Shown here piece after piece: positions 22,663 through 58,464 of a stretch of 64,000 nt of DNA (its first letter is position 1; every line of letters begins with the position of its first letter). The stretch covers positions 193,029-257,028 of the forward strand of contig CAVXQJ010000016.1 in assembly GCA_963763745.1 (NCBI GenBank), read 5' to 3'. The translations under genes and the position numbers were made by a program. Origin of the DNA: an uncultured delta proteobacterium. Lineage in GTDB: Bacteria > Myxococcota_A > Polyangia > Polyangiales > Polyangiaceae. A model generated the notes under the pieces. It saw nothing but the letters and a program-made list of their open reading frames with translations. It was not told where the DNA came from and did not search any database.

Positions 22663-24819
22663 TCAAACGAGTTTGCTGAAGTCCGCGATGCGCAGCATGC
22701 ACGACGCGCCGTACGAGAGGAGGCGGAGGCGCTCGGGAGTCTTGTCGTCGTCGGGATCGTTGACGAGCGTCTCGTTGAAGATGCGATCGACTTGCTCGGC
22801 GAGCTCGCCCATCGTGAAGAGGGCCTCGGCTGTCGCGTGCTCGGTCACGAGCGCGCGCGTTTTTTCATCGAGCGCTTCGACGACGTCGACGATCGCGGCG
22901 TCGGTGGGTTTGGCGAACGCCGAGCGCGCGACGAGCTCGGGCTTCGACTCTTTGCTGATGCCCGCGAGGCGCTTGCCCACGGTGCGCGCCTTGTCGAGCC
23001 ATGGAGCTTTTTCGTCGATCAGCTTTTGCAGCGCTCGCGCTTTTTGGAGCGCGAACGCGGAGTGCATCGCCGGAGCGACGCGCTTGCCGTCGATCCACGC
23101 GTAGCCGCCGAGGACCGCGGCGGCGGCGGCGCGGCTCGTGCGCGACTCGATGAGGCCGCGGAGTCGCTCGGTGGCGAACGCTTCGAGCAAGCGCGTCGTC
23201 TCGGCGGCGTCGTGATCGAGCTTCTTTCCGGCGAAGAGACCGTGCGCGAACGTCGTGAGATCGCCGAAGTGAATGCGCGCGTACGCGGGTGACGCTTCTT
23301 CGATGAGCGTGCGCAAGATTCCGATGCACGCGCGGCGGAGCGCGAAGGGATCCGCCGTGCCCGTCGGTTGGAGCGAGGCGGCGAAGCCGCCGGCGAGCGT
23401 GTCGATGCGATCGGCGATGGCGACGACGCGCGCGATGTCGTCGGTCGCGACCGCGCCCTCCGCGCCGATGGGCGCGTAGTGATCGCGAATGGCGTCCGCG
23501 ACGCGCGGGTTCTCGTTCGCGGCGAGCGCGTAGGCGCGGCCCATCGTTCCTTGGAGCTCGGGGAACTCGCCGACCATGAGCGTCACGAGATCGCTCTTGC
23601 AGAGTCGCGCGGCGCGCGCGGCGAGCGCGGTGTCCGCGTCCGAGAGCCCGATGATCTTCGCGATGTGCGCGCTGAGCTTCTCGATGCGCTCCACTTTTTC
23701 GCGGATCGATCCGAGGCGCGTGTGAAACACGATGCCGGCGAGCTTGTCGGTGCGTTCGTCGAGCGATGTCTTCTTGTCCGTGTCGAAGAAGAATCGCCCG
23801 TCGGAGAGGCGCGCGCGCATCACGCCGTCGTTGCCTTTGCGCACGTTCGACGGGTTCTTCGCCGTGTTCACGACGGCGAGGTAGTGCGGCAAGAGCACGC
23901 CCTGCGCGGCGTCGCTCTTCTGCACGACGAAATATTTTTGGTGACCGCGCGCGACGGCGCGAATCACCGCGGGCGGAAGCGAGAGGAACGCAGGATCGAA
24001 CCCGCCCGCGACGACGTGCGGCTCTTCGACGAGCGACGCGTTCTCGCTGACGAGCGCGGGATCCGGATCGGGGACGCCGCCGAGCGCGGATGCCGCATCG
24101 ACGACGAGCTTCATCATCGTGCGCTCGCGCTCTTCGCGATCGACGAGCACGTGTGCGGTGCGAAGCTGCTCGACGTAGCTCGCGGCGCTGCCGATGTCGA
24201 AGAACGCGGGCGAGAGGAAGCGGTGACCGCGCGTGCGACGTCCGCTGCGGACGTGAGCGAACTCGAAGTCGATCACGCGATCGTCCGCGAGCGCGACGAG
24301 CCATTGCACGGGGCGACCGAACGGCGTGTCGTAGTCGGCCCAGCGCATCGACTTGCGAAACGGGATCGAGGCGCAGACGTCGGCGAGCATGGCGCCGATG
24401 AGCTCGACCGATTTGCGGCCTTTCTCTTCGCGTCGTCCGACGACGTAGCGGCCGGGCTTCTTTCCGCTCGAGGCGTCGAGATCTTTAACGACGAGCGCAT
24501 CCAACGAGAGGCCGAGCTTTGCGGCGAACGTCTCGGCGGCTTTGGTGGGCTTGCCGTCTTTGTATGCGGCCGTCTCGGGCGGGCCGATGACCATTTCGTC
24601 GAGATCGCTCTGCACGTCGGCGATGTCGTGGACGATCGTCGTCAGCCGACGCGGCGTGCCGAGCGCGTGGATCTGATCGTGCGTCACGCGCAGCGCGGCG
24701 AGGCGCGTGCGAAACAGATCAGGCAGCGCCGCGAGCGCGCCGTCCACGAACGACGACGGGAGCTCTTCGCAGCCAATTTCGAGCAGGAGGGTGAAGCCCA
24801 CGAGCGTGAGGTCTATCAT
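22663..24819 (-). CDS. glyS: Glycine--tRNA ligase beta subunit
   Basis: MIDLTLVGFTLLLEIGCEELPSSF… plus the C-terminal anticodon-binding region. About 719 aa. No adjacent glyQ. Confidence 0.9.
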   Translation of the reverse strand: MIDLTLVGFTLLLEIGCEELPSSFVDGALAALPDLFRTRLAALRVTHDQIHALGTPRRLTTIVHDIADVQSDLDEMVIGPPETAAYKDGKPTKAAETFAAKLGLSLDALVVKDLDASSGKKPGRYVVGRREEKGRKSVELIGAMLADVCASIPFRKSMRWADYDTPFGRPVQWLVALADDRVIDFEFAHVRSGRRTRGHRFLSPAFFDIGSAASYVEQLRTAHVLVDREERERTMMKLVVDAASALGGVPDPDPALVSENASLVEEPHVVAGGFDPAFLSLPPAVIRAVARGHQKYFVVQKSDAAQGVLLPHYLAVVNTAKNPSNVRKGNDGVMRARLSDGRFFFDTDKKTSLDERTDKLAGIVFHTRLGSIREKVERIEKLSAHIAKIIGLSDADTALAARAARLCKSDLVTLMVGEFPELQGTMGRAYALAANENPRVADAIRDHYAPIGAEGAVATDDIARVVAIADRIDTLAGGFAASLQPTGTADPFALRRACIGILRTLIEEASPAYARIHFGDLTTFAHGLFAGKKLDHDAAETTRLLEAFATERLRGLIESRTSRAAAAAVLGGYAWIDGKRVAPAMHSAFALQKARALQKLIDEKAPWLDKARTVGKRLAGISKESKPELVARSAFAKPTDAAIVDVVEALDEKTRALVTEHATAEALFTMGELAEQVDRIFNETLVNDPDDDKTPERLRLLSYGASCMLRIADFSKLV

Positions 24820-25034
24820 GTCGCCGTGGCGAAGCAGAAGACGTTCCCCGAGAAGTGTCGCTGCGGGTTTCGACTCGAGCATCCGCTCGTCGCGCCGCGC
24901 CTTCATTTTTCGCCGCCCAAGTGGGTGCTGCTTTGTCTCGGCGCGACGCCGTATCCGTCACGCGTCGACTACCACTGCACGCGCTGCAACATCGTCTTGA
25001 AGTCGACGGACGAAAAAAAAGTCCTCGAGACTTT

Positions 25035-25625
25035 CTAAGGACACGACGAGAGGCGATACGACGGGCTGCGGCCGTTCACGCCGGCGACGTTGTCCGTGTA
25101 CGGACTGTCTTCGAGATGAAGCGCTAGCAGGCCGCCGGCGAAATCGAATTCGAGCGGCGCGTCGTTCGCGAGGTTCGTGTTCACGCAATCGTCGAAGCTC
25201 GTGAATCCACCTTGTCCTTGAACGAAGCCGACGGTGCCCGGCGCGGGCGCGATGATTTGGTTTCCAGTCGTCACGACGTAGAGCGTGTCGGGTCCGTTCG
25301 CGTACGCGTTCACGGTCCACGCTTGTCCGGACGAATACTTCATGCAGCCGTCGACGTACGTCACGCGGTAGTGGCCCGGCGGCACCGAGCCCCACGTGAC
25401 GGTGCTGCCGAAGACGTCCTCGACGGCGACGCCGAAGTCGCACGGTGGCGGTGGCACATCGGCGACGTTCACGTCGGTCACGACGTCGCTCGGCGCGTCG
25501 ATCACGCTCGCGTCGCGATGATCGATGCTCGCGTCGACGATGTGCGACGCGTCGACTTCGATGATCCCGCCGAGCTCGGTTCGCGCTCCGCACGCACACA
25601 CGAGGGCGAGCAGTGCGGCGCGCAC
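25035..25625 (-). CDS. Lipoprotein, hypothetical
   Basis: MRAALLALVCACGART (lipobox). Directly downstream of the AAA+/RF-like gene and probably co-transcribed. Confidence 0.65.
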   Translation of the reverse strand: MRAALLALVCACGARTELGGIIEVDASHIVDASIDHRDASVIDAPSDVVTDVNVADVPPPPCDFGVAVEDVFGSTVTWGSVPPGHYRVTYVDGCMKYSSGQAWTVNAYANGPDTLYVVTTGNQIIAPAPGTVGFVQGQGGFTSFDDCVNTNLANDAPLEFDFAGGLLALHLEDSPYTDNVAGVNGRSPSYRLSSCP

Positions 25626-25626
25626 G

Positions 25627-28320
25627 TCAGCTCGCTTCGAGCGCGGCTTCGAGGAACGCGTCGATCTTTCCCGAGAGGACGCGCTTCACGTCGCCATCGG
25701 ACGCGCCCGTGCGGCGATCGCGGACGCCGCGCGAGTGGAGCTGATCGTACGTGCGGATCGGCGGCTCGTCGTCGCGCACGCGCTTCGTCGACATCGGCGC
25801 GCCGGGCGCTTTGACTTCGACGCGCGCGAGCCACGTGTCGCCGCGCTTGTCCTTGCCCTTCGGCGCCGCGATCAACCGGTGCCCGCCTTGTTCGCCTTTC
25901 AAATATCCGTACGCGTATGGGCCCTTCACGGTGATCGTCACGGTCTGCGCGTGCGCGGTCGTCTCGACGTCGTACTTTCGATCCTCGGCCCACGACGCGT
26001 ACATCTGCGCGAGCTCCTTCGCCCATGCGCTCGCGCCCTCTTTGCCGCCGACGGCGCGCACGACGAGCTCGGCGTCGCCGCGATCGGTGTCGTCGAAGTG
26101 GACGATCTCGCGTTCGGCGCGCGTGAGCGCGCGTTCGAGGCGCGCGTAGCGACCGACGAGATCATCGGCGGTGTCGCCGCGGGCGTTGCGCGGATCGACG
26201 AACGCGGCCTCGACGACCTCGCTCAGCAAATCGGTCCGCTGGCGCAAATCTTCGAGGCGCTTGATCTCCACGCTGAGCCGGTGGCGCTTGTACACGTCGC
26301 CGCCCTTGCCGAACGCTTCGTCCCAAAACGCCGGGCTCTTCGTCTTCTCTTCCATCGCCTCGAGCTCGCCGCGCATCGCAGCGACGTCGGCTTTTTCTTC
26401 GAGCTTCTCGATGCGCTCGTAGATGGACTTGAGCTCCGTCTTCACTTGCGCGAGCGACATGCGCACGACCTGTCCTTCGCCGTCGGTCGCGCGCGTGCGG
26501 CGCTCGAGGCTCTGGAGCTTGCGCGAGGTCTCGGTGTCTTCGAAGCTGAGTGACACGCCGTCGCCCTTTCGTGCCACACGGAGGAGCTGGTAGCGCTGCG
26601 CGGACGCGCCGAGCACCGCGCGCGCGAGCGGGAGAACGAGGAGCTCCTCGATCGCGCGCTTCAGCGGGCGCGCGCCGTACTTCGGATCGAAGCCGCGATC
26701 GAGGAGGAGATCGATGACGCCTTCGTCCACTTCGAGGAGGAGATCGCGCTCGAGCAATCCTTCGCGCCGATACACCTTGCCGAGCTCGCGCTGCGCGATC
26801 TTGCGCATGTCGCTCTTCTCGAGCGGCTCGAAGACGAGGATCTTGTCGATGCGGTTGAGAAACTCGGGGCGGTACGCGTGCTCGAGCGTGCGCCGCACGT
26901 CGCGGACGATGTTCGGCGAGCCGCCCTCCGCGCGACCGGAGAAACCAATCGACAATCCGAGCTCGCGCATGTTCGCGCCGACGTTCGACGTGAGGATGAT
27001 GAGCGTGTGGCGGAAGTCGACCGTGTCGCCGAACGCGTCGGTGAGGCGTCCGTCGTCGAAGACTTGGAGCATCAAGTCGGCGAGGTTCGGGTGGCCCTTC
27101 TCGAACTCGTCGAGCAAGACGACCGAGAATGGATTCTTGCGGACGTAGTCGGTGAGGAGCCCTGTCTTGTCCTGCTTCGGATCGCCGATGAGCTTCTCGA
27201 ACGAGTGAAAGTCTTTGTACTCGCTCACGTCGATGCGGAGCATCTTCGACGGGCTGCCGAAGAGAAACTCGGCGGTCGCCTTCGCGAGCTCCGTCTTGCC
27301 GACGCCCGTTGGACCGACGAAGAGCAAAACGCCCGCGGGCCAATCGGGATCGTTGAGGCCGGTCTTGTATAATGCAAGCAAATCGGCGACCGCGGAAACG
27401 GCTTCTTTTTGGCCCAAAACGCGCTCGGCGAGGAACTTGTGCATCTCCTCGTACGACATGCGCACAGTGGCCGAGAGCATGTGCATCGGGAGCGCGGTTT
27501 GTTTCGCGAAGACCTCCTCGACGAACGGCGCGTCGATGCGCGCCTTGTGGCCCGTGTCCGGCGCGCTCGCTTCTTGGACGACGCGCCGGAGGAGCTCGAC
27601 GCCTTTGCCGGGGAAGCTCTGCGTCGGAATGAATTTTTTCGCGAGCGAGAAGACGCGATCGATCGCTTGCTTTTCGAACGCGGGCGAGAGATCCGCCGCG
27701 ACGCGCACGAGCAGCTCGCGCGTCTCTTCTTCGGTGGGCTCGGGCACCGCGATGGCGACGAAATCGCGGACGAGGATCGGGTGCTCGCGCGCGAGCTTGT
27801 CCCAGCGGCCGGGTGTCACCTCGCCGAAGATGACGAGCTTGCCCTGTTCGATGCCGGGCCGCATGAGATCGTACACGCCGCGCGGGTTCGTGCTGTACGA
27901 GCCGGCGTACGGGAGGTTCCACACGTCGGGGATGTAGTGGAGGCGTTTTCGCGACGCGTGCGCGAGCATCGATCGGATGCGGCCTTCTTGTTGTCCCGTG
28001 AAGCGCGTGTCGGCGCAGAGACCGACCGTGGAGATTTCGTAAATCTTCGAGCCCGCGACTTCGGGGACGCGCCCGTCGCGCAGATACGAGAGGAGCTTTT
28101 GAACGACCGCGCTTTTTCCGACGCCGCTCGGGCCGACGAGCACAGCGCTTCGACCGCTCGCGAGCGTGCGCGCGAGCGCGTGCACTTCGGTTTGACGACC
28201 GAAGGTCTTCTCGCCGGTCGCATTGGGATCGGCGGAGAGCTCGCGCCCATCTTGCGCGACGACGTCGAAGTTGGCTTCAGTCACGGGAGAGCGTCGAAAG
28301 ATAGCATTTGCGCCGTGCAC
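25627..28320 (-). CDS. ClpA/ClpC-like double-AAA+ ATPase fused to an RF2-like domain-2/C-terminal module lacking the GGQ domain
   Basis: Walker A motifs GPSGVGKS and GPTGVGKT. D2 has LLDEFEKGH, RPEFLNRIDKILVFEPL and GARPLKRAIEE. An SIGF loop sits at the ClpA IGL position. The C-terminus aligns with the RF2 PCRF region and tail (YAYGYLKGEQGGHRLIAAPKGKDKRGDTW…; IRTYDQLHSRGVRDRRTG…IDAFLEAALEA). GTG start. Confidence 0.85.
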   Translation of the reverse strand: MHGANAIFRRSPVTEANFDVVAQDGRELSADPNATGEKTFGRQTEVHALARTLASGRSAVLVGPSGVGKSAVVQKLLSYLRDGRVPEVAGSKIYEISTVGLCADTRFTGQQEGRIRSMLAHASRKRLHYIPDVWNLPYAGSYSTNPRGVYDLMRPGIEQGKLVIFGEVTPGRWDKLAREHPILVRDFVAIAVPEPTEEETRELLVRVAADLSPAFEKQAIDRVFSLAKKFIPTQSFPGKGVELLRRVVQEASAPDTGHKARIDAPFVEEVFAKQTALPMHMLSATVRMSYEEMHKFLAERVLGQKEAVSAVADLLALYKTGLNDPDWPAGVLLFVGPTGVGKTELAKATAEFLFGSPSKMLRIDVSEYKDFHSFEKLIGDPKQDKTGLLTDYVRKNPFSVVLLDEFEKGHPNLADLMLQVFDDGRLTDAFGDTVDFRHTLIILTSNVGANMRELGLSIGFSGRAEGGSPNIVRDVRRTLEHAYRPEFLNRIDKILVFEPLEKSDMRKIAQRELGKVYRREGLLERDLLLEVDEGVIDLLLDRGFDPKYGARPLKRAIEELLVLPLARAVLGASAQRYQLLRVARKGDGVSLSFEDTETSRKLQSLERRTRATDGEGQVVRMSLAQVKTELKSIYERIEKLEEKADVAAMRGELEAMEEKTKSPAFWDEAFGKGGDVYKRHRLSVEIKRLEDLRQRTDLLSEVVEAAFVDPRNARGDTADDLVGRYARLERALTRAEREIVHFDDTDRGDAELVVRAVGGKEGASAWAKELAQMYASWAEDRKYDVETTAHAQTVTITVKGPYAYGYLKGEQGGHRLIAAPKGKDKRGDTWLARVEVKAPGAPMSTKRVRDDEPPIRTYDQLHSRGVRDRRTGASDGDVKRVLSGKIDAFLEAALEAS

Positions 28321-28382: not shown

Positions 28383-29067
28383 ATGGAACGAGCGTCGACG
28401 TTGATGATGGCCGGGCTCCTCACGACGGCCAGCGGGTGCTCGAAGAGTGGCGAGCCCGGTGATCTTTGTGGCCGACTGGCAAAAGCGGGTGCTGCGACGA
28501 GCTGCAGCACGCCGCCCAATCAAGACAAAAGCCTGCAGTTTGCGACGTTCACCGAGTCGGGCAACACGCATCACAAGGGCGTCATTGTTCGTTATCGCGA
28601 CGAACCAGACTATCGCAAGGCCAAGCAGTTCGAGGACGAGCACAAGGCGGCAGCGGCGCTGATCGAGCGCGTCTACGTCAAAGACGATGCTCACGTGGTC
28701 GTGACACTCGAAGGCAGCGGCGGACAAGATCGCCAAGACGCTCGACATGACGGTGCTCGTCGGTTCCCCAACGACCAACGTCGCACCCGCGGAGCTCGGC
28801 AAGTATCTATTCGCGAGCAAGGGGTGCGCGGTGTGTCACTCGGTTGATGGCACCAAGTCAACCGGACCAACACTCAAGGGCGTATTCGGGAAACCCGTCT
28901 TGCTCGCCTCGGGCGAGAGTGTCGTGGCAGACGAAGCGTACGTTCGCGAGTCGATCCTGCAGCCAAACGCGAAGGTCGTCCTCGGTTTTCCGCCGATACA
29001 GCCCCCATATGAACTTCCGGAAGTCGAGATCGCCGGCCTCGTCGCATACGTCGAGTCACTTCAATGA
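28383..29067 (+). pseudogene. Lipoprotein with a C-terminal class-I cytochrome c domain, apparent frameshift near 28715-28725
   Basis: MERASTLMMAGLLTTASGCS (lipobox) ORF in frame 0. The CAVCH haem-binding ORF (28747..29067) is in frame +1 and has no signal peptide of its own. Confidence 0.55.
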
Positions 29068-30251: not shown

Positions 30252-31238
30252 TCAGCGCTTCGCGGCGTGCGCGAGAGCCCGCGCGAGCTCGTGTCGCTTC
30301 GTCGTTCCGAGCTTGCGATGTGCGCGCGCGATGAGGACGCGCACGGTCGTGTCCGATAGCCCGAGCTCGTAGGCGATGTGCTTCGTCGTGTGACCGAGTA
30401 CGACGAAGGAGACGACTTGTCGCTCTCGCGGCGTGAGCGCTTCGGGTCCGTGCCCGCCGGCCTCGTTGCGTTGAGCGACGACGTAGCGTTTTCCGCTGCG
30501 CTCGAAGTGATCGACGAGAGTCCATCGCGCGGAGACGAGGCCGCGCCACATCGCGATGGCCTCGTCGGGCGCGTTGCGTCGCATGCGTCCGCGAGCGCGT
30601 TCAATCGCGCACGTCGCTTCTTTGAGGAGATCGCGCGCGGCGCGCAGTTGCGCTTCTCCGACCGCGTGCTCCACGCGACCGTTCGGCGCGAGGATGGCCT
30701 CGCCGTCCGAAGGAGTGGTTCGAAGTCTTCGACGAAGTCGATATCCGGCGGCGATGTGCGCGGAGACGCGCGAGAGCATCTCCTGGCGATCGCGCGTGAG
30801 TCGCATTTTCGTCGGCGTTGCGACGCCGATGAACGCGCCGATGCCGGCGGGGTCGACTCCGTTGATGCCCAGCATGTCGCGAACGCCGACCGGGTTGAAC
30901 AGCGCGTGGAACGACGTCTGCGCATGGTTGGGCGTCGTGCTCGCCATCGCACACGGAATCACGCGAAACGACGTTTCGACGTACGACGCGTTCACGCCTT
31001 CCTCGATGACTTGCTTGGCGAGCGCCGCGAACCCGCGCGCGCGCTTCGTTTCGACGACGGTGCGTGCGTGCATCGTGTTCGACGCGTCGACTTCGTAGAG
31101 CAATCCGACGGTGCCGACTCCAACACCCACCGCCGACTCAGTCGCGTCTGCGATGCGCTGGATCCAGCTCGCGTCGTTCCCGTCGAAATCGTAAACGCGC
31201 TCGACGACGGAGAGAATGTCCGACTTGCCGCGCCCCAT
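30252..31238 (-). CDS. LuxR-family transcriptional regulator
   Basis: C-terminal HTH (LTPRERQVVSFVVLGHTTKHIAYELGLSDTTVRVLIARAHRKLG). ATG at 31236-31238. Confidence 0.8.
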   Translation of the reverse strand: MGRGKSDILSVVERVYDFDGNDASWIQRIADATESAVGVGVGTVGLLYEVDASNTMHARTVVETKRARGFAALAKQVIEEGVNASYVETSFRVIPCAMASTTPNHAQTSFHALFNPVGVRDMLGINGVDPAGIGAFIGVATPTKMRLTRDRQEMLSRVSAHIAAGYRLRRRLRTTPSDGEAILAPNGRVEHAVGEAQLRAARDLLKEATCAIERARGRMRRNAPDEAIAMWRGLVSARWTLVDHFERSGKRYVVAQRNEAGGHGPEALTPRERQVVSFVVLGHTTKHIAYELGLSDTTVRVLIARAHRKLGTTKRHELARALAHAAKR

Positions 31239-31338
31239 GTCCCATCGTCGCACACGTTCGCGAGGGCGTGCGTTTACATGAACACGCGTAAACGATTTCG
31301 AACGCCCGGCGCACGCGCAGCGCCAGCATGATGCCCGC

Positions 31339-32838
31339 ATGCGTACGCTCGTATTCTTCTTCTTGGCATGTGGCGCCGCATCTGCTGCTTGCGTCGGTGA
31401 TGGCGGGCAAACGACGACCGATGGAGGGCTCGACGCGGCCTCCGATGTCTCACTGAACGACGTTGTCGCGATCGACGCCTCCGAAGCGTGCGCGACGACG
31501 TGCGGGGGTCAGTGCGTCGACACGACGAGCGATCCGCAGAACTGTGGCGGATGCGGTGTCACATGCAAGAAGGCGTCGACGAGCTTTGCGTGTGTGCAAA
31601 GCAAATGCGGAAACGTCGTCACGAGCGTCGAGACGAGCCAGAACGCGTCGTGCGCGCTTCTTCTCGAAGGCACCGTGTGGTGTTGGGGTGACGAGAACGT
31701 CGGAGAGACCGGCGTCGTCGGCACCTACACGCCGGCGCCGACGAAGGTCGCCGGCTTGTCGAACGTCACGGCGATCGCCGGTGCGGCGAGCTCGTGGTGC
31801 GCGCTCGAAGGCGACGGGAGCGTGTGGTGCTGGGGATCGAACAGCGTCGGCCAGCTCGCACAAACCATCGGCGCCGACCCCGATTGCAACGGCGTGTGCG
31901 ACCCGACGCCGAGGCAGGTGACGCTCTCGAGCAAAGCAACGCAAGTCGTCGGTGGCACGGACACGTTCTGCGCCGTCGTCGCGGGCAACGTCTACTGCTG
32001 GGGGGCGGCGTCGACGGGCATCCTCGGAACGACGAGCGCCACGCCGAGCGCCACGCCCGTGAAGATCCCCGTGTTCACCGGCGATGTGCTCGCTCTTGGC
32101 TTTTCATTCAGCGATGGCGGTTTCCCGGGCGTGCACGAACATGCCTGCGCGCTGCGATCGGACACGTCGATTTGGTGTTGGGGCGAGAACAACGGCGGTC
32201 AACTCGGGCACCCGCAACAAGCCGGAACGCCCGCCGACACCGGTTGCTACACCAACGCGTGGTGCAACCCGACGCCGCAACCCGTCCAAGACGGTGCGTC
32301 GAAGACGATCACGGGGTTCAAGGTCGTGCTCGCGGGCAACCAATTCTCCGCCGCGATCAAGAGCGACGGCACGTTGTGGACGTGGGGCAGCAACGGCGAA
32401 GGCACGCTCGGCAACGGAACGCACGACACCAACGTGTTCGGCTCGCACAGCGTGCCCGCGCAGATCCTCACGAACGCCGCGTATGCGTCCGTCAGCGAGC
32501 TCGACGGGTTCGTCGTCGACAACGGCGGCACGACGAGCGTGTGGGGCGCGAACTTGAACGGCTCGCTCGGTCTCGGCACGCTCACGGTCGGCACGACGTG
32601 TACGAACTTCGATTGCAAACAAGCACCGGCGACGAACGCCTCGCTCGCCGGCGCCAAGCACGTCTCCCTCCGTTACGAGAGCGGCCTCGCGCTCATGCCG
32701 AACGGCGACGTGCTCGGTTGGGGCATCAACGACTACGCGCAGCTTGGCCACGCACCCAATACGAACGGCGACGTCACGTGCGGAGCATCGAGCCACTGCC
32801 TGCTCGCGCCGACGGCGCTCGCGTCGACGCCGTGGTGA
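31339..32838 (+). CDS. RCC1-repeat (beta-propeller) lipoprotein with a Cys-rich N-terminal module
   Basis: MRTLVFFFLACGAASA (lipobox), a Cys-rich CGGQCVDTTSDPQNCGGCGVTC module, then repeated WCWG…GQLG RCC1 blades. Confidence 0.85.
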   Translation: MRTLVFFFLACGAASAACVGDGGQTTTDGGLDAASDVSLNDVVAIDASEACATTCGGQCVDTTSDPQNCGGCGVTCKKASTSFACVQSKCGNVVTSVETSQNASCALLLEGTVWCWGDENVGETGVVGTYTPAPTKVAGLSNVTAIAGAASSWCALEGDGSVWCWGSNSVGQLAQTIGADPDCNGVCDPTPRQVTLSSKATQVVGGTDTFCAVVAGNVYCWGAASTGILGTTSATPSATPVKIPVFTGDVLALGFSFSDGGFPGVHEHACALRSDTSIWCWGENNGGQLGHPQQAGTPADTGCYTNAWCNPTPQPVQDGASKTITGFKVVLAGNQFSAAIKSDGTLWTWGSNGEGTLGNGTHDTNVFGSHSVPAQILTNAAYASVSELDGFVVDNGGTTSVWGANLNGSLGLGTLTVGTTCTNFDCKQAPATNASLAGAKHVSLRYESGLALMPNGDVLGWGINDYAQLGHAPNTNGDVTCGASSHCLLAPTALASTPW

Positions 32839-34445: not shown

Positions 34446-35839
34446 TATCTCAATTTGTCTATCGCCTCCTGCACCGTGCGCTCGAAGCCCGGTTTCTTCT
34501 GGGCGTCGGGCAGTGAGCGGTAGAGCGCGAGCTGCGCTTCGAGGGCGGCGCGGGCTTCGGGGCGCTTGCCCATCGCCATCAAGATGTCCGCTTTGAGGCG
34601 GTACATGAGGCCTTTGCGCGCGCCGTAGCCTTTGGCTATCGCGCGATCGATCGCGGCGAGCGCCTCTGCGTTTTTTCCGAGCTTGAAGTACACGTGCGCG
34701 AGGCGGTGCGCGGGGTTGTAGTCGTTCGGTAGCGCCTTCTCTTGCGCCTCGAGGAACTGCGCGGCCTCCGCGCCACGACCGAGGAACTCGAGCGTCTCCA
34801 TGCGCGCGCCGTCGAACGTCGTCGCGATCTCCGGGTCGGGACGCGCGGCGACGGCCTTCATGATGACGGCGAGTCGCGAGCGCGCGGCGTCTTGCGCGCC
34901 CTTGTGATCGCCGAGCATCTCGAGCGCTTCCCACACGACGTGAAATCCGTCGGCGCGATCGTCGGGCGAGAGGAGCGCGTTCGTGTCGCTGCACGCTTGC
35001 GCGACGCGCGGCGCGATCGCCGAGCGAATCTTCTTCACGCGCGCGGCGTCGTGGCTCTGCTCGGTGCAGTCGAGCGCGATCGAAGAAAAATCGATCATCA
35101 CGGACGACTCGCCGAGCGTGCCGAGATATTTCTCCGCCGTGTCGAGGCAGCGCGCGTCGTGCTTTTGCGCGCTGATCAATCCGAGCGCGGCTTCCGGCAA
35201 GTGATCCCAATTCGCGGGCGCCGCGGCGAGCGCGCGTGCGAATTGTTTCTCCGCTTCGGCGTAGTCGCTCTTCAGCACCGCGCGGTGACCCGCGAGGAGC
35301 AGCGCGCGCGGATTGTTCGCATCGAGCGAGCCCGCGTGTGCCTGCTCGATGGAGCGCGTCGCGTCCGTCAGGAACGCGCGCATCTGTTGAACGCTGCCCG
35401 CGCCTTCCCATCTTCCGTGAACGGATCCATCGCTCGGATCGACGACGAAGAACGTGGGCAGCACGTGCGTCGGAAACGCGGCGGACGCGGCGGCGTTCTG
35501 CTCTTTCTCGATGTCGAACGAGAAACGCACGAACGACTGCGGGAGCGACGCGTCCTCGAGCACGAACGTCCGCATCGCCTTGCACGTGTGACACCACACC
35601 GCCGACGCATCGACGAAGAGCGGCGCGTTCGCTTTCTTCGCGGTCGCGACGGCGCGCGCGTAGTCGTCCTCAATCCAATCGCGCGGAATCGGGATGGGCG
35701 CAGAGGCGGACGCAGACGCCGACGGAGTCAGAGACGGAGTCGGGGACGGGGACTGGGACGGAGTCGGAGTCGGGGACGGAGTCGGCGTTTGCGTGCCGCC
35801 GCACGCGACGAGAAAGAGAAAGACGAGCCGGCGCGACAT
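34445..35839 (-). CDS. Thioredoxin-like (WCxxC) TPR-repeat lipoprotein
   Basis: MSRRLVFLFLVACGG (lipobox), a Pro/Thr/Ser linker, a WCHTCK thioredoxin-fold motif and C-terminal TPR-like repeats. Confidence 0.8.
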   Translation of the reverse strand: MSRRLVFLFLVACGGTQTPTPSPTPTPSQSPSPTPSLTPSASASASAPIPIPRDWIEDDYARAVATAKKANAPLFVDASAVWCHTCKAMRTFVLEDASLPQSFVRFSFDIEKEQNAAASAAFPTHVLPTFFVVDPSDGSVHGRWEGAGSVQQMRAFLTDATRSIEQAHAGSLDANNPRALLLAGHRAVLKSDYAEAEKQFARALAAAPANWDHLPEAALGLISAQKHDARCLDTAEKYLGTLGESSVMIDFSSIALDCTEQSHDAARVKKIRSAIAPRVAQACSDTNALLSPDDRADGFHVVWEALEMLGDHKGAQDAARSRLAVIMKAVAARPDPEIATTFDGARMETLEFLGRGAEAAQFLEAQEKALPNDYNPAHRLAHVYFKLGKNAEALAAIDRAIAKGYGARKGLMYRLKADILMAMGKRPEARAALEAQLALYRSLPDAQKKPGFERTVQEAIDKLR

Positions 35840-36025
35840 CGCGCCATCTTGTGCTAACGTTTCATCGATGTCGACGTTCGCCTACGCCCGCTATCAGTAT
35901 TCGTATTACGCATTGCGGGCGTAGCTGGAGTCGCACATCTGATCGACGAGGCCGCCCGGGAGGTGGCCTCGTTTCGTTTTGTGCGCGGCGCATCTCCAGA
36001 GCGGTTCTCGAAAAGGAGAACCGAG

Positions 36026-36694
36026 ATGCACACGAAAGAAGAAAACGCGCTCTGGGCGATGCTTCGCGCCGAGCTCGAGCCGCTTCACGCGCGAAGCGCG
36101 TGCCGTGCGATACGCGACACGCACGTCGCGCTCCCACGCGATCGCATTCCATCGCTCGAAGAGGTCACGGCGCTCGTCCGGCCGCACACGGGATTCGTCT
36201 TGCGTCCCGTCGACGGGCTCGTTCCGTCGCGCGAGTTCCTCGGCGCGCTCGCGCATGGAGTCTTCTCGAGCACGACGACAATTCGCGACGCGCGCACGCC
36301 GCACTACACGCCCGAGCCCGACGTCGTGCACGAGTTCATCGGACACGCCGCGTCGCTCGCGCATCCGGAGATCGCGGAGCTCAATCGCATGATCGGGCGC
36401 GCTGCGCAGGGTTGCGACGACGATGCGCTCGTCGCGCTCGAACGTTTCTACTGGTTCACGCTCGAGTTCGGATTGATCGAAGAAGACGGCGAGCCCAAGG
36501 CGCTCGGCGCGGGGCTGCTGTCGTCGGTCGCGGAGATGAAGCGCTTCGCGCACGTCACGCTGCGCCCATTTCATCGGGACGAAATCACGGCGACGCCTTT
36601 CTCGACGACCGCCATGCAAGACGTGCTCTTCGTCGCGCCATCGCTCGACGCGATCATTTCGTCGTTCGGGCGTGTTAAAGAGATCGCAGCATGA
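36026..36694 (+). CDS. phhA: Phenylalanine 4-monooxygenase (aromatic amino acid hydroxylase)
   Basis: [19 protein letters not shown]…[27 protein letters not shown] matches the pterin-dependent hydroxylase catalytic core. RBS aaaggaga lies upstream. Confidence 0.85.
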
Positions 36695-38373
36695 CGGAGA
36701 CCATCCCGGCAATTTCGTCGAAGACATCGTCAAAGACGATCTCGCGAGCGGCAAACATGGCGGTCGCGTGATGACGCGATTCCCGCCCGAGCCGAACGGC
36801 TATCTCCACATCGGCCACGCGAAATCGATTTGCTTGAACTTCGGTCTCGCGGCGCTCTCGCCCACGGGAAATGCAATTTGCGCTTCGATGACACGAATCC
36901 CGTCGCCGAAGACGTCGAGTACGTCGAGTCGATCAAGAACGACGTGCGCTGGCTCGGGTTCGATTGGGAAGATCGCGAGTACTACGCGTCGGATTATTTC
37001 CCGAAGCTCTACGAGCTCGCCGAGGCGATCGATCAAAAAGGTTTGGCCTACGTCGACAGCCAAACCGAAGAGCAGATTCGCGATGGCCGCGGCAGCTTCC
37101 ACGAGCCCGGGCGCGATTCGCCGTTTCGCAATCGCCCCATCTCCGAGAATCTCGATTTGCTTCGTCGCATGAAGAGCGGCGAGTTCAAGGATGGCGAGCA
37201 CGTCCTCCGCGCGAAGATCGACATGGAGTCGACCGACGTGAAAATGCGCGATCCTCTCATGTATCGCATTCGCCACGCGCACCATCACCGCACGGGCGAC
37301 ACGTGGTGCATCTATCCGATGTACGATTTTGCGCACGGCTTTCGGACGCCATCGAAGGCGTGACGCACTCGGTGTGCACGCTCGAGTTCGTCAACCATCG
37401 GCCGCTCTATCACTGGTTCATCGACGCCGCGGCGACGGAGAATCACCCGCAGCAGATCGAGTTCGCCAAGCTAATCATCACGTACATGCTCTTCTCGAAG
37501 CGAAAGCTAAGCCAGCTCGTGGAGGAGAAGCACGTGAGCGGCTGGGACGATCCACGCATGCCGACGCTCGCGGGGTTGAGGCGTCGCGGCGTCACACCGA
37601 GCGCGCTCCGCGAATTTTGCGATCGCGTCGGCGTGTCCACGCGCGACAGCGTCGTCGACATCGTCGCTCCTCGAGCATACGCTGCGCGAAGATCTCAACG
37701 CGACGTCGCCGCGCGTGATGGCGGTTTTGCGCCCATTCGAAATCGAAATCGAGAATTGGCCCGAAGGCAAAGTCGAATGGATCGAAGCGCCATACGACCC
37801 GGAAAAACCCGACGGGCCGAAGCGCAAGGTGCCTTTCTCGCGACGCGTTTTCATCGAGCGCGAAGACTTCATGGAGGATCCGCCGAAGAAATTCTCCGTC
37901 TCTCCCCCGGCGCGGAAGTTCGTTTGCGTTGGGCGACGATCATCAAGTGCAAAGAGGTCGTCAGGAACGGGCGCGGCGAAATCGATAAGGCTCGTTTGCA
38001 CCTATGACCCCGAACGCGACGGGCGGTCAACCGAAGGACGGCCGCAAGATCAAAGGCACGATCCACTGGGTCTCGGCGGATCACGCGAAAGACGCGGAAG
38101 TGCGTTTGTACGATCGCCTCTTCAAAGACGAAAACCCCACGCACACGGAGAACTTCCTCGACTCGCTCAATCCGAATTCGCTCGAGACGCGGGAGCATTG
38201 CAAAGTAGAGCCGAGCCTCGAGATCGGCCCAAGCGCTCGAGCGATTCCAATTCGAGCGACTCGGCTACTTCTGCGTCGACCCCGACTCGACGCCCGCGAA
38301 GCTCGTTTTCAACCGGACGATCACGTTGAAGGACACGTGGGGCGTGCTGGTTCAAAAAGGGAAGGCGGACTGA
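36691..38373 (+). pseudogene. glnS: Glutamine--tRNA ligase with at least 8 single-nt frameshifts
   Basis: GlnRS-homologous segments alternate between frames: MTETIP | NFVEDIV…[13 protein letters not shown] | [13 protein letters not shown]…YPMYDFAHG | [17 protein letters not shown]… | …EDLNATSPRVMAVLRPFEIE… | …EVRLRWATIIKCKE… | …CTYDPE… | …[18 protein letters not shown]… | …[12 protein letters not shown]…. The shifts fall at short G/C or A runs. Confidence 0.85.
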
Positions 38374-57735: not shown

Positions 57736-58464
57736 GTGATCGTTCAAACCAGCAGCGTCGTCATCGAGACGAGCACCGGCGCGATGCTCACGCACGTTCA
57801 TCGTCCGGTTGCGGACGGCAAGCGACCGGGGATCGTTCTCTTCTCGGAGATCTTCCAGCAGACGGCGCCCATCGCGCGCATGGCGGCGATGTTCGCGGGG
57901 CATGGGTTCGTCGTCGCGGTGCCGGAGATATTTCACGAGCTCGAGCCGGCGGGGACCGTCCTCGCATACGACGCGCGCGGGACGGACGCGGGAAACCGCC
58001 ACAAAACCGAGAAGCCCATCAGCGCGTTCGACGACGACGCACGCGCCGCGATCGACCATCTGCTCTCGCGCGACGACGCGAGCGGCGCGATCGGAGCGTT
58101 CGGCGTTTGCATCGGCGGGCACCTCGCGTTTCGGTGCGCGTTCGATCCGCGCGTTCGCGCGGCGGCGTGTTTCTACGCGACCGACTTGCACAAGCGTTCG
58201 CTCGGAAAAGGCGGCGACGATTCGCTGTCGCGCGCCGCGGACATTCGCGGCGAGCTCATGATGGTGTGGGGTCGGCAAGATCCCCACGTCGACGACGAAG
58301 GCCGTCTCGCGATCGAGGCCGCGCTGCGCACCGCGAAAACCAAGTACACGTGGCACGAGCTCAACGCAGCACACGCGTTCCTCCGCGACGAGGGCCCGCG
58401 CTACGACCCTGCGCTCGCGCTGCTCTCGTACCGCATGTCGCTCGATCTCTTCGCGCGGATGTGA
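57736..58464 (+). CDS. Dienelactone hydrolase family protein
   Basis: …GIVLFSEIFQ…AFGVCIGGHLAF… shows the alpha/beta-hydrolase DLH pattern. GTG start. Confidence 0.8.
   Translation: MIVQTSSVVIETSTGAMLTHVHRPVADGKRPGIVLFSEIFQQTAPIARMAAMFAGHGFVVAVPEIFHELEPAGTVLAYDARGTDAGNRHKTEKPISAFDDDARAAIDHLLSRDDASGAIGAFGVCIGGHLAFRCAFDPRVRAAACFYATDLHKRSLGKGGDDSLSRAADIRGELMMVWGRQDPHVDDEGRLAIEAALRTAKTKYTWHELNAAHAFLRDEGPRYDPALALLSYRMSLDLFARM

Follow-up and report, generated by a model that had tools for sequence, protein, structure and literature searches.

In bacteria, ribosome rescue and quality control have been attributed to tmRNA, ArfA, ArfB, RqcH/RqcP, MutS2/SmrB and HflX, and to our knowledge no AAA+ unfoldase is targeted directly to the bacterial ribosome. 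In the ribosome quality control of eukaryotes, the release factor (RF)-like Vms1/ANKZF1 partners Cdc48/p97, a two-ring AAA+ unfoldase, on ribosomal complexes that have stalled. In Dom34/Pelota with ABCE1 (and Hbs1), an RF paralogue devoid of the GGQ motif and of stop-codon reading sits in the A site together with an ATPase. PrfH, ArfB and the ArfA-RF2 pair are RF-family proteins that also act on ribosomes without reading a stop codon. The locus described here lies in a window of 64,000 nucleotides (nt) from an uncultured delta proteobacterium of the Polyangiaceae (assembly GCA_963763745.1, contig CAVXQJ010000016.1, positions 193,029 to 257,028 of the forward strand). At positions 25627..28320 of the window, on the minus strand, a single gene encodes a two-ring Clp/Hsp100 ATPase followed by a module derived from RF2 that has lost the GGQ domain.

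The fusion is conserved and constitutes an apparently undescribed Clp/Hsp100 subfamily with an unprecedented targeting domain. The preferred reading, put forward tentatively, is that of a stress-linked, probably ClpP-docking Clp machine aimed at the factor-binding/A site of the ribosome by a catalytically dead, codon-blind copy of RF2. The likeness to the two ATPase-linked systems is one of analogy. Vms1 has an unrelated eRF1 fold, is active on peptidyl-tRNA, works as a separate polypeptide and shows no homology to the query protein. Dom34/Pelota likewise has an eRF1-type fold and acts through separate proteins, with an ABC rather than an AAA+ ATPase and no link to a ClpP-type protease. PrfH, ArfB and ArfA-RF2 differ in that they keep GGQ and release the peptide, which the query module cannot do, and PrfH lacks domain 1, which the query module has.

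Architecture of the fusion protein

The open reading frame (ORF) is intact, as the preliminary description made from the DNA letters had it:

25627..28320, minus strand: whole ORF with stop codon, 897 amino acids (aa) from a GTG at 28320, uninterrupted

The true start is probably Val13 (GTG, nt 28284), giving a product of 885 aa, because the database protein P0001, which is 100% identical to the query, has 885 aa and because the N-termini of homologues fall 25-31 residues ahead of query position 40. The protein consists of D1 (residues ~40-290), D2 (~295-497), the D2 small domain (500-574), a junction (575-622), RF2 domain 1 (623-745), RF2 domain 2 (746-837), a linker (838-853) and RF2 domain 4 (854-897). 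The HMM scan that had been suggested for this protein finds AAA_2 at 329-494 (E=4e-43), ClpB_D2-small at 500-574 (E=3e-16) and PCRF (PF03462) at 651-821 (E=4.8e-18, 66.1 bits against a cut-off of 24, profile positions 3-180 of 194). Neither Clp_N nor the GGQ-bearing RF-1 domain (PF00472) is matched in the Pfam scan of the 897-aa protein.

All motifs quoted in the preliminary description are present, with coordinates re-derived in the protein: GPSGVGKS at 63-70, LHYIPDVW at 127-134, GPTGVGKT at 336-343, LLDEFEKGH at 402-410, SIGF at 457-460, RPEFLNRIDKILVFEPL at 484-500 and GARPLKRAIEE at 549-559. The boundary between the two halves had to be moved. The Clp part ends at about 574-590 and not at residue 730, RF2 domain 1 fills 623-745, the RF-derived part comprises ~275 aa (RF2 domains 1, 2 and 4) instead of ~150, and the halves are joined not at nt 26100-26250 but at nt ~26455-26598, in a segment of its own:

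26455..26598, minus strand: structured junction (residues 575-622), two beta-hairpins and a helix; AlphaFold2 (AF2) pLDDT ~90, conserved in the family

This junction is present neither in Clp proteins nor in RF2. The full-length AF2 model has a pLDDT of 91.7 and a pTM of 0.73, and its best Foldseek matches are ClpC chains from ClpC-ClpP complexes, ClpB, ClpC1 and ClpA.

The RF2-derived module

Four segments make up the C-terminal part of the protein:

26086..26454, minus strand: RF2 domain 1-like helical bundle (residues 623-745) with a PxFW motif and conserved W666; NCBIfam, phmmer, AF2 and Foldseek
25810..26085, minus strand: RF2 domain 2-like region (residues 746-837); phmmer, conservation and Foldseek
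25762..25809, minus strand: 16-aa linker APGAPMSTKRVRDDEP (residues 838-853), replacing the ~105-aa GGQ domain 3; phmmer alignment and family comparison
25630..25761, minus strand: RF2 domain 4-like tail (residues 854-897); phmmer, conservation and AF2

The NCBIfam prfB model (TIGR00020) matches residues 631-837 and a second stretch with E=4e-33, at 114.8 bits against a cut-off of 370, and in NCBIfam the RF part scores nearer RF2 than RF1. Against PDB sequences, phmmer finds E. coli RF2 (E=7e-18), with the query matching RF2 residues 7-204 and its tail matching RF2 ~323-363. The Pfam, NCBIfam and phmmer values lie well outside what chance would give. For residues 600-897, AF2 modelling with 113 homologues gives a pLDDT of 94 and a pTM of 0.88. 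In a Foldseek comparison of this model with the PDB, the top hits listed are RF2 and RF1 only, the best being free E. coli RF2 (1gqe, TMq 0.73, E ~1e-16), so that the RF2 fold proposed for the C-terminus is borne out by structure prediction.

The module resembles RF2 (prfB) in the fold of domains 1, 2 and 4 and in the motifs MYxxWA, GxYAxGxLxxExGxHR, RxY and DxRTG. The conserved core of domain 2 comprises Y774, W777, A778, G800, G805, L807, E810, G812, H814, R815, V834 and V836, and in domain 4 R856, Y858 and D868 are near-invariant. It differs from RF2 in having no domain 3 and no GGQ, in lacking SPF, in the non-conserved tip of helix alpha5 and E167 loop, in the replacement of His215, and in sitting behind an ATPase in one polypeptide. 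The absence of the GGQ domain was correctly seen at the outset; the 16-aa linker stands in its place and PF00472 finds no match. The reading of the SPF position as APK also holds, the query having (A)PK(G) there; in addition the E167 loop is deleted and His215 has become Asp. The term decoding module, used in the preliminary description, is a misnomer, since SPF, the GGTE tip of helix alpha5, the E167 loop and His215 are all lost, and from these replacements the module is predicted to be codon-blind. The programmed frameshift site of prfB was not found in the query.

The Clp ATPase rings

The N-terminal two thirds of the protein contain the following elements:

27451..28203, minus strand: D1 AAA+ module (residues ~40-290); Pfam/NCBIfam, HMMER alignment to ClpB and ClpA D1, AF2 and Foldseek
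28111..28134, minus strand: D1 Walker A GPSGVGKS (residues 63-70), kept across the family
27994..28008, minus strand: D1 pore-1 loop TRFTG (residues 105-109), equivalent of the ClpB/ClpA KYR loop
27919..27942, minus strand: degenerate D1 Walker B LHYIPDVW (residues 127-134); HMMER alignment and family table
27814..27828, minus strand: FGEVT (residues 165-169); invariant-column list and HMMER alignment
26830..27438, minus strand: D2 AAA+ module (residues ~295-497); Pfam, conservation and HMMER alignment
27160..27186, minus strand: shortened D2 pore-1 loop GDPKQDKTG (residues 379-387); HMMER alignment and family table
26920..26976, minus strand: putative ClpP-docking loop (residues 449-467); conservation, ClpC alignment and low pLDDT
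26599..26823, minus strand: D2 small domain (residues 500-574), including the sensor-2 GARPLKR; Pfam ClpB_D2-small, 3e-16

Tandem AAA+ modules and a D2 small domain with a sensor-2 GAR define a two-ring Clp/Hsp100 protein, and the query has them; the ClpA model covers residues 57-570, and Foldseek superposes the protein on ClpC, ClpB and ClpA with TMt values of 0.7-0.8, up to 0.80. Its NCBIfam scores are far under the cut-offs (343 against 993 bits for ClpA, 353 against 1232 for ClpB), and none of the equivalog models for ClpA, ClpB, ClpV, ClpK and ClpG is passed. With ClpC and ClpA the query shares the tandem D1/D2 arrangement, the D2 small domain with its sensor-2 GAR, an aromatic D1 pore loop of the KYR type and an [ILV]-G-[FL] tripeptide, borne by a flexible loop that matches the ClpC P-loop in position and spacing; like ClpA it is without an M-domain. 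It differs from them in having no N-domain, a D1 Walker B without Glu, a deletion of GYVG in D2 and an extra C-terminal stretch of ~320 aa formed by the junction and the RF2 module. The missing Clp N-domain had been recognized before and agrees with the Pfam result and with the start of D1 ~15-40 residues from the N-terminus.

Some members (P0144, P0101, P0116, P0094, P0105 and P0120) carry N-terminal extensions of 180-440 aa made of TPR or HEAT/Armadillo repeats in place of the Clp N-domain, which suggests lineage-specific substrate or adaptor domains. A few repeat-extended members have Trp or Tyr in the D2 pore loop.

The D2 catalytic set is invariant: Walker A (336-343), Walker B (400-408, LLDE), sensor-1 T444/N446, the Arg-finger R484 and sensor-2 R551. 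In the D2 small domain G549, A550, R551 and R555 are invariant. The D1 pore-1 aromatic, F107 in the query, is Tyr in 88 and Phe in 25 of 115 members, within the pattern T-R-[YF]-T-G. In the D2 pore-1 loop, the HMMER alignment sets the query 'ligdpk....qdktgllt' against ClpB 'ligappgyvgyeeggqlt', in which exactly four residues, GYVG, are deleted from the query.

The putative ClpP-docking loop has its tip, I458-G459-F460, at nt 26941-26949. Within the pattern [ILV]-G-F the Gly is found in 115 of 115 members and the Phe in 113, while the flanks vary in sequence and length and are gapped. Its alignment with the S. aureus ClpC loop 'fagfgg' is gap-free, and ClpB is 6 aa shorter there; the docking loop is the sole internal segment with a pLDDT below 50 in the full-length AF2 model. 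SIGF had been placed at the position of the ClpA IGL loop, and [ILV]GF indeed falls on the docking-tripeptide site of ClpC and ClpA. Such a pattern is the signature expected of a ClpP-docking loop, and docking is probably what it serves, to judge from these alignments. A clpP gene was found neither in the window nor adjoining the fusion gene in 20 loci.

Distribution and evolution of the family

The search for homologues gave more than 120 full-length proteins of the same architecture, 33-100% identical to the query, from independent assemblies that include contigs of 7.0, 1.8 and 1.4 Mb. Their source names are Polyangiaceae, Polyangia, Kofleriaceae, Myxococcales, Acidobacteriota, Candidatus Riflebacteria, and 'Deltaproteobacteria' and Alphaproteobacteria metagenome-assembled genomes (MAGs). 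A phmmer search of 1.84 billion representatives with the RF module added 22 further fusions or fusion fragments; the colinear fusion homologues number more than 130. A scan of genome contigs with the single RF module gave six true relatives, all from Polyangia/Myxococcota MAGs, along with canonical RF2. The view that clp was joined to a truncated prfB by misassembly or a frameshift error, or that the gene is a decaying pseudogene, is refuted: the ORF is intact, the more than 130 homologues are colinear, the junction is conserved, the catalytic residues are invariant and the AF2 model is of high confidence. The misassembly for which the preliminary description had allowed is not the case, the same fusion occurring in independent assemblies.

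In a neighbour-joining tree of RF modules a single branch separates all fusions from canonical RF2. Of 137 proteins in which a Clp D2 is combined with an RF part, none shows GGQ in the latter, and the motif is present in all 47 sequences from the same search that were classified by it as canonical RF2. The deepest fusion groups hold a full-size domain 3, and one of their proteins, P0102, aligns throughout with E. coli RF2 residues 47-361 (E=5e-22); the GGQ site in these groups reads G.RR, GQGE, ARGP, RAGL and the like. Intermediate groups keep a remnant of domain 3 of 71-78 aa in which the signature QNxRxxxxN is still visible. In the query clade, which numbers ~69 sequences in the tree, and in one further clade, all that is left is a linker of 16-39 aa (16-19 aa in the query's own clade). 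It had been considered that the query might represent a local deletion, with a GGQ domain in all other homologues. Domain 3 is indeed found in deeper relatives, GGQ in none; because GGQ is absent even where domain 3 persists, catalysis has been lost by the family as a whole rather than by accident at this one locus. The order of events read from these sequences is that GGQ was inactivated, then domain 3 shrank and finally vanished, with domains 1, 2 and 4 remaining under selection. The erosion of domain 3 around an invariant core of domains 1, 2 and 4 points to selection on a binding scaffold rather than on decoding or catalysis.

Stand-alone RF2-like proteins without GGQ were sought among hits of 250-350 aa. 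Those scanned with Pfam bear a ClpB_D2-small piece at the N-terminus and the rest cluster with fusion RF modules, so that both sets look like pieces of fusions rather than stand-alone proteins. Two proteins outside the family combine RF parts with repeats: P0233 (787 aa) has a PCRF fragment followed by HEAT repeats, and P0158 (777 aa) a complete RF2 (PCRF and RF-1) with C-terminal SHIPPO repeats.

That the protein belongs to no described family, as first stated, agrees with the absence of any NCBIfam model that it passes and with the literature. By several of their defining features it falls outside ClpA, ClpB and ClpC, and it falls outside prfB as well. No Clp-PCRF fusion was found in full-text searches or in the main survey of RF evolution (Burroughs & Aravind 2019, PMC6514570), an absence that is not proof. 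Members are labelled automatically as 'AAA family ATPase' or 'ClpC', and a few JGI records read 'ClpA/protein subunit release factor A', so the architecture has already been noticed by automated pipelines.

A heat-shock-type gene cluster in subfamily B

Subfamily B, with members of ~965 aa, is the sister of the query clade in the tree. Its fusion gene is the fourth in a cluster that reads dnaK, a dnaJ/cbpA-like gene, a MerR-family (HspR-like) gene, the fusion and Abhydrolase_2, all on one strand with gaps of 18-40 nt:

L020:2482-8898: subfamily B cluster
L022:2431-8895: subfamily B cluster
L023:2473-8916: subfamily B cluster

The RF modules of the three proteins are only 49-64% identical to one another. 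The order dnaK-dnaJ-merR-fusion is the layout of an HspR-type heat-shock operon, and for this lineage, at least, the cluster connects the family with stress proteostasis. Upstream of dnaK the three loci have in common a promoter-like TTGACA-N17-TATATT (L020:2330-2490, L022:2270-2440, L023:2310-2480), and in all three its spacer contains ACTCAAG, half of the HspR operator consensus; this half-site hints at control by HspR without proving it. A search for the full HspR operator (HAIR) upstream of dnaK in L020 and L022 gave matches at chance level only. Metagenome contigs scanned with the subfamily B alignment of junction and RF module yielded 80 loci among the matches listed, all of them at most 30% identical and with patterns that also fit canonical RF2.

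The cluster also bears on a different explanation, in which the protein is a stress chaperone or protease acting on misfolded or aggregated proteins beside DnaK and DnaJ, like ClpB or ClpC, and its RF2-derived domain has left the ribosome and been reused for substrate or adaptor binding, regulation or oligomerization. In subfamily B the fusion gene lies directly after dnaK-dnaJ-merR (hspR-like), where a clpB-type gene could sit, and in this it is comparable to clpB in HspR-controlled heat-shock regulons; all known residues that contact the stop codon are lost together with the catalytic domain, and no ribosomal or translation-factor neighbour is conserved across subfamilies. However, RF2 domains 1, 2 and 4 keep their mutual arrangement and an invariant core over deep divergence, and we know of no partner of RF2 domain 1 besides the ribosome and RF3. 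The protein also lacks the M-domain, through which ClpB is coupled to DnaK, and the N-domain, to which adaptors bind in ClpC and ClpA, and it has a ClpP-type loop, which is absent from ClpB. On these grounds an off-ribosome chaperone or protease appears unlikely.

Proposed mechanism and its difficulties

According to the preferred reading of a Clp machine directed to the ribosome, the ATPase would assemble as a hexamer with D2 as its motor, by virtue of the complete and invariant catalytic set. D1 would bind nucleotide and supply the grip on the substrate, since it alone has aromatic pore loops. The flexible, invariant [ILV]-G-F loops would dock ClpP, as in ClpC, ClpA and ClpX. Of the six RF2-like arms, each made of domains 1, 2 and 4, one would bind a ribosome with a free A site and would neither read a stop codon nor hydrolyse peptidyl-tRNA. 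In this manner ATP-driven remodelling, probably degradation, would be brought to a ribosome-bound substrate, probably under stress; this substrate might be a translation complex that has stalled, a factor bound to the ribosome or one of the ribosomal proteins. That the ATPase is a hexamer, that it docks ClpP and binds ribosomes, and what it acts on, are inferred. In RF2 the N-terminus of domain 1 faces outward from the ribosome, close to the L11/L7-L12 stalk, so that a fusion at this end is sterically conceivable. For the nascent-chain extraction proposed in the preliminary description, analogy is the sole support.

A number of observations weigh against this reading. In D1 the Walker B motif is hhhh[PST]D instead of hhhhDE; the lack of the catalytic Glu, noticed at once in the query, extends to the whole family (present in 0 of 115 members). 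A substitute may be Glu167 of FGEVT, to judge from its conservation: it is invariant in 114 of 114 aligned members and adjoins the D1 sensor-1 position, where ClpB has Ala (GATT). In D2, GYVG is deleted in practically all members, scarcely any of them has an aromatic residue in the loop, and the replacement loop is basic, with the consensus D-P-[KR]-x-x-[KT]-[TP]-G. The GYVG pore-1 loop of D2 is critical for translocation in ClpA, ClpB and ClpX, and its deletion makes canonical threading of a polypeptide through D2 into ClpP doubtful. The ring predicted to be capable of hydrolysis (D2) is the one without grip, and the gripping ring (D1) is without the canonical catalytic residue. Protomers move as units in cryo-EM work on ClpB, Hsp104 and ClpA, so that motion of the D1 loops driven by D2 is conceivable, yet threading is not to be assumed. 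Of the original designation as an unfoldase, the two-ring Clp/Hsp100 ATPase stands and the simple unfolding activity is weakened by the family-wide loss of GYVG.

The same holds for targeting. SPF and the GGTE tip of helix alpha5 are missing in every fusion subfamily, and the tip loops differ between subfamilies. A-site binding is suggested by the modelled retention of the fold of domains 1, 2 and 4 alone. The RF arms emerge from the ring on its D2 (ClpP-proximal) side, a long way from the entry pore in D1. Across the 20 loci no gene for ClpP or ClpS and no ribosomal gene is conserved next to the fusion, and the link to dnaK is that of a single subfamily, with three loci that share upstream tatA/tatC synteny.

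The state of the two rings also raises the possibility of a ribosome remodeller or splitter that does not feed a protease. The RF2-like arm would occupy the A site, and ATP hydrolysis by D2 would be used mechanically, parting the subunits or dislodging mRNA, tRNA or a bound factor without threading into ClpP; the basic D2 loop might engage RNA. A short, conserved basic loop in place of GYVG and a degenerate D1 Walker B are what such a machine might show, as is an RF paralogue without GGQ and codon reading, comparable to Pelota relative to eRF1, and the conserved structured junction together with the pTM of 0.73 suggests a defined geometry of ring and arm. In contrast, the invariant [ILV]GF loop has no obvious role if there is no ClpP, the conserved aromatic pore loop in D1 argues for a grip on polypeptides, and we know of no Clp/Hsp100 member that translocates RNA. 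A purely mechanical remodeller is distinctly unlikely as an alternative to a ClpP-docking, ribosome-directed machine.

At its widest, the ribosome-directed reading is that the family could be the first case in bacteria of an AAA+ machine brought to the A site through mimicry of a release factor, in a hitherto unknown, stress-induced pathway of ribosome quality control or turnover, possibly coupled to ClpP or engaging RNA through the basic D2 loop, in Myxococcota, Acidobacteriota and other phyla; this is a possibility held with less assurance than the machine itself. A Clp motor tied to an A-site mimic suggests that a pathway of this kind exists, and offers a single-gene handle for testing it. 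If ribosome targeting is true, it would amount to a new principle of bacterial quality control, and if recruitment to the A site is true, the protein would combine in one polypeptide a function analogous to that of Vms1-Cdc48 or Dom34-ABCE1. For the evolution of release factors the family serves as a natural experiment. It is equally one for Hsp100 mechanism, in which an ATP-hydrolysing ring without the pore tyrosine is stacked on a tyrosine-keeping ring without the catalytic glutamate.

Genomic neighbourhood

The fusion gene lies in DNA of native composition (~65% GC), with a small lipoprotein-like ORF and glyS downstream and a cytochrome c gene, a LuxR-type regulator and an RCC1-repeat protein upstream:

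22663-24906, minus strand: glycyl-tRNA synthetase beta subunit gene
25035-25625, minus strand: lipoprotein-like ORF of 196 aa, N-terminus with signal peptide and lipobox-like sequence (…LLALVCACG…)
28747-29067, plus strand: cytochrome c gene
30252-31340, minus strand: LuxR-type regulator gene
31339-32838, plus strand: RCC1-repeat protein gene
~34470-38373: thioredoxin-like and glutaminyl-tRNA synthetase (GlnRS) genes, by synteny with the related locus L001

The lipoprotein-like ORF begins one base past the stop codon of the fusion and has no Pfam match. It had been put forward as a neighbour worth following, and it accompanies the fusion only in the two closest relatives, L001 and L006, so that it was rejected as a conserved partner. 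In the query clade the synteny with glyS alone persists, and distant members have unrelated neighbours. The aminoacyl-tRNA synthetase genes are neighbours by Polyangiaceae synteny and do not form an operon with the fusion. A scan for promoters and terminators around the fusion gene gave nothing over background.

ARAGORN reports an 84-nt tRNA-Ala(TGC) at 58077-58160 on the plus strand, and Rfam at gathering score finds no tRNA or other family across the window; the tRNA may be atypical, or the call a false positive.

It is very improbable that the protein serves in conflict or defence by attacking or inspecting ribosomes, for instance when phages infect the cell. The PADLOC models DolB and PDC-M37B match the D2 AAA_2 region, and RF paralogues such as PrfH act in damage-response contexts. 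However, the PADLOC matches are limited to the generic AAA core (residues 287-449), the fusion is a single chromosomal gene of native GC among housekeeping genes, no family member was found in plasmid and phage collections, and the 20 loci hold no defence neighbours. A known PADLOC defence system was rejected for the same locus, the AAA-core matches being partial and the neighbourhoods devoid of partner genes. The Prevotella Lak megaphages (MK250015-MK250029) encode RF2-like proteins that are ~26% identical to the query RF module; these look like ordinary release factors borne by phages and not like Clp fusions.

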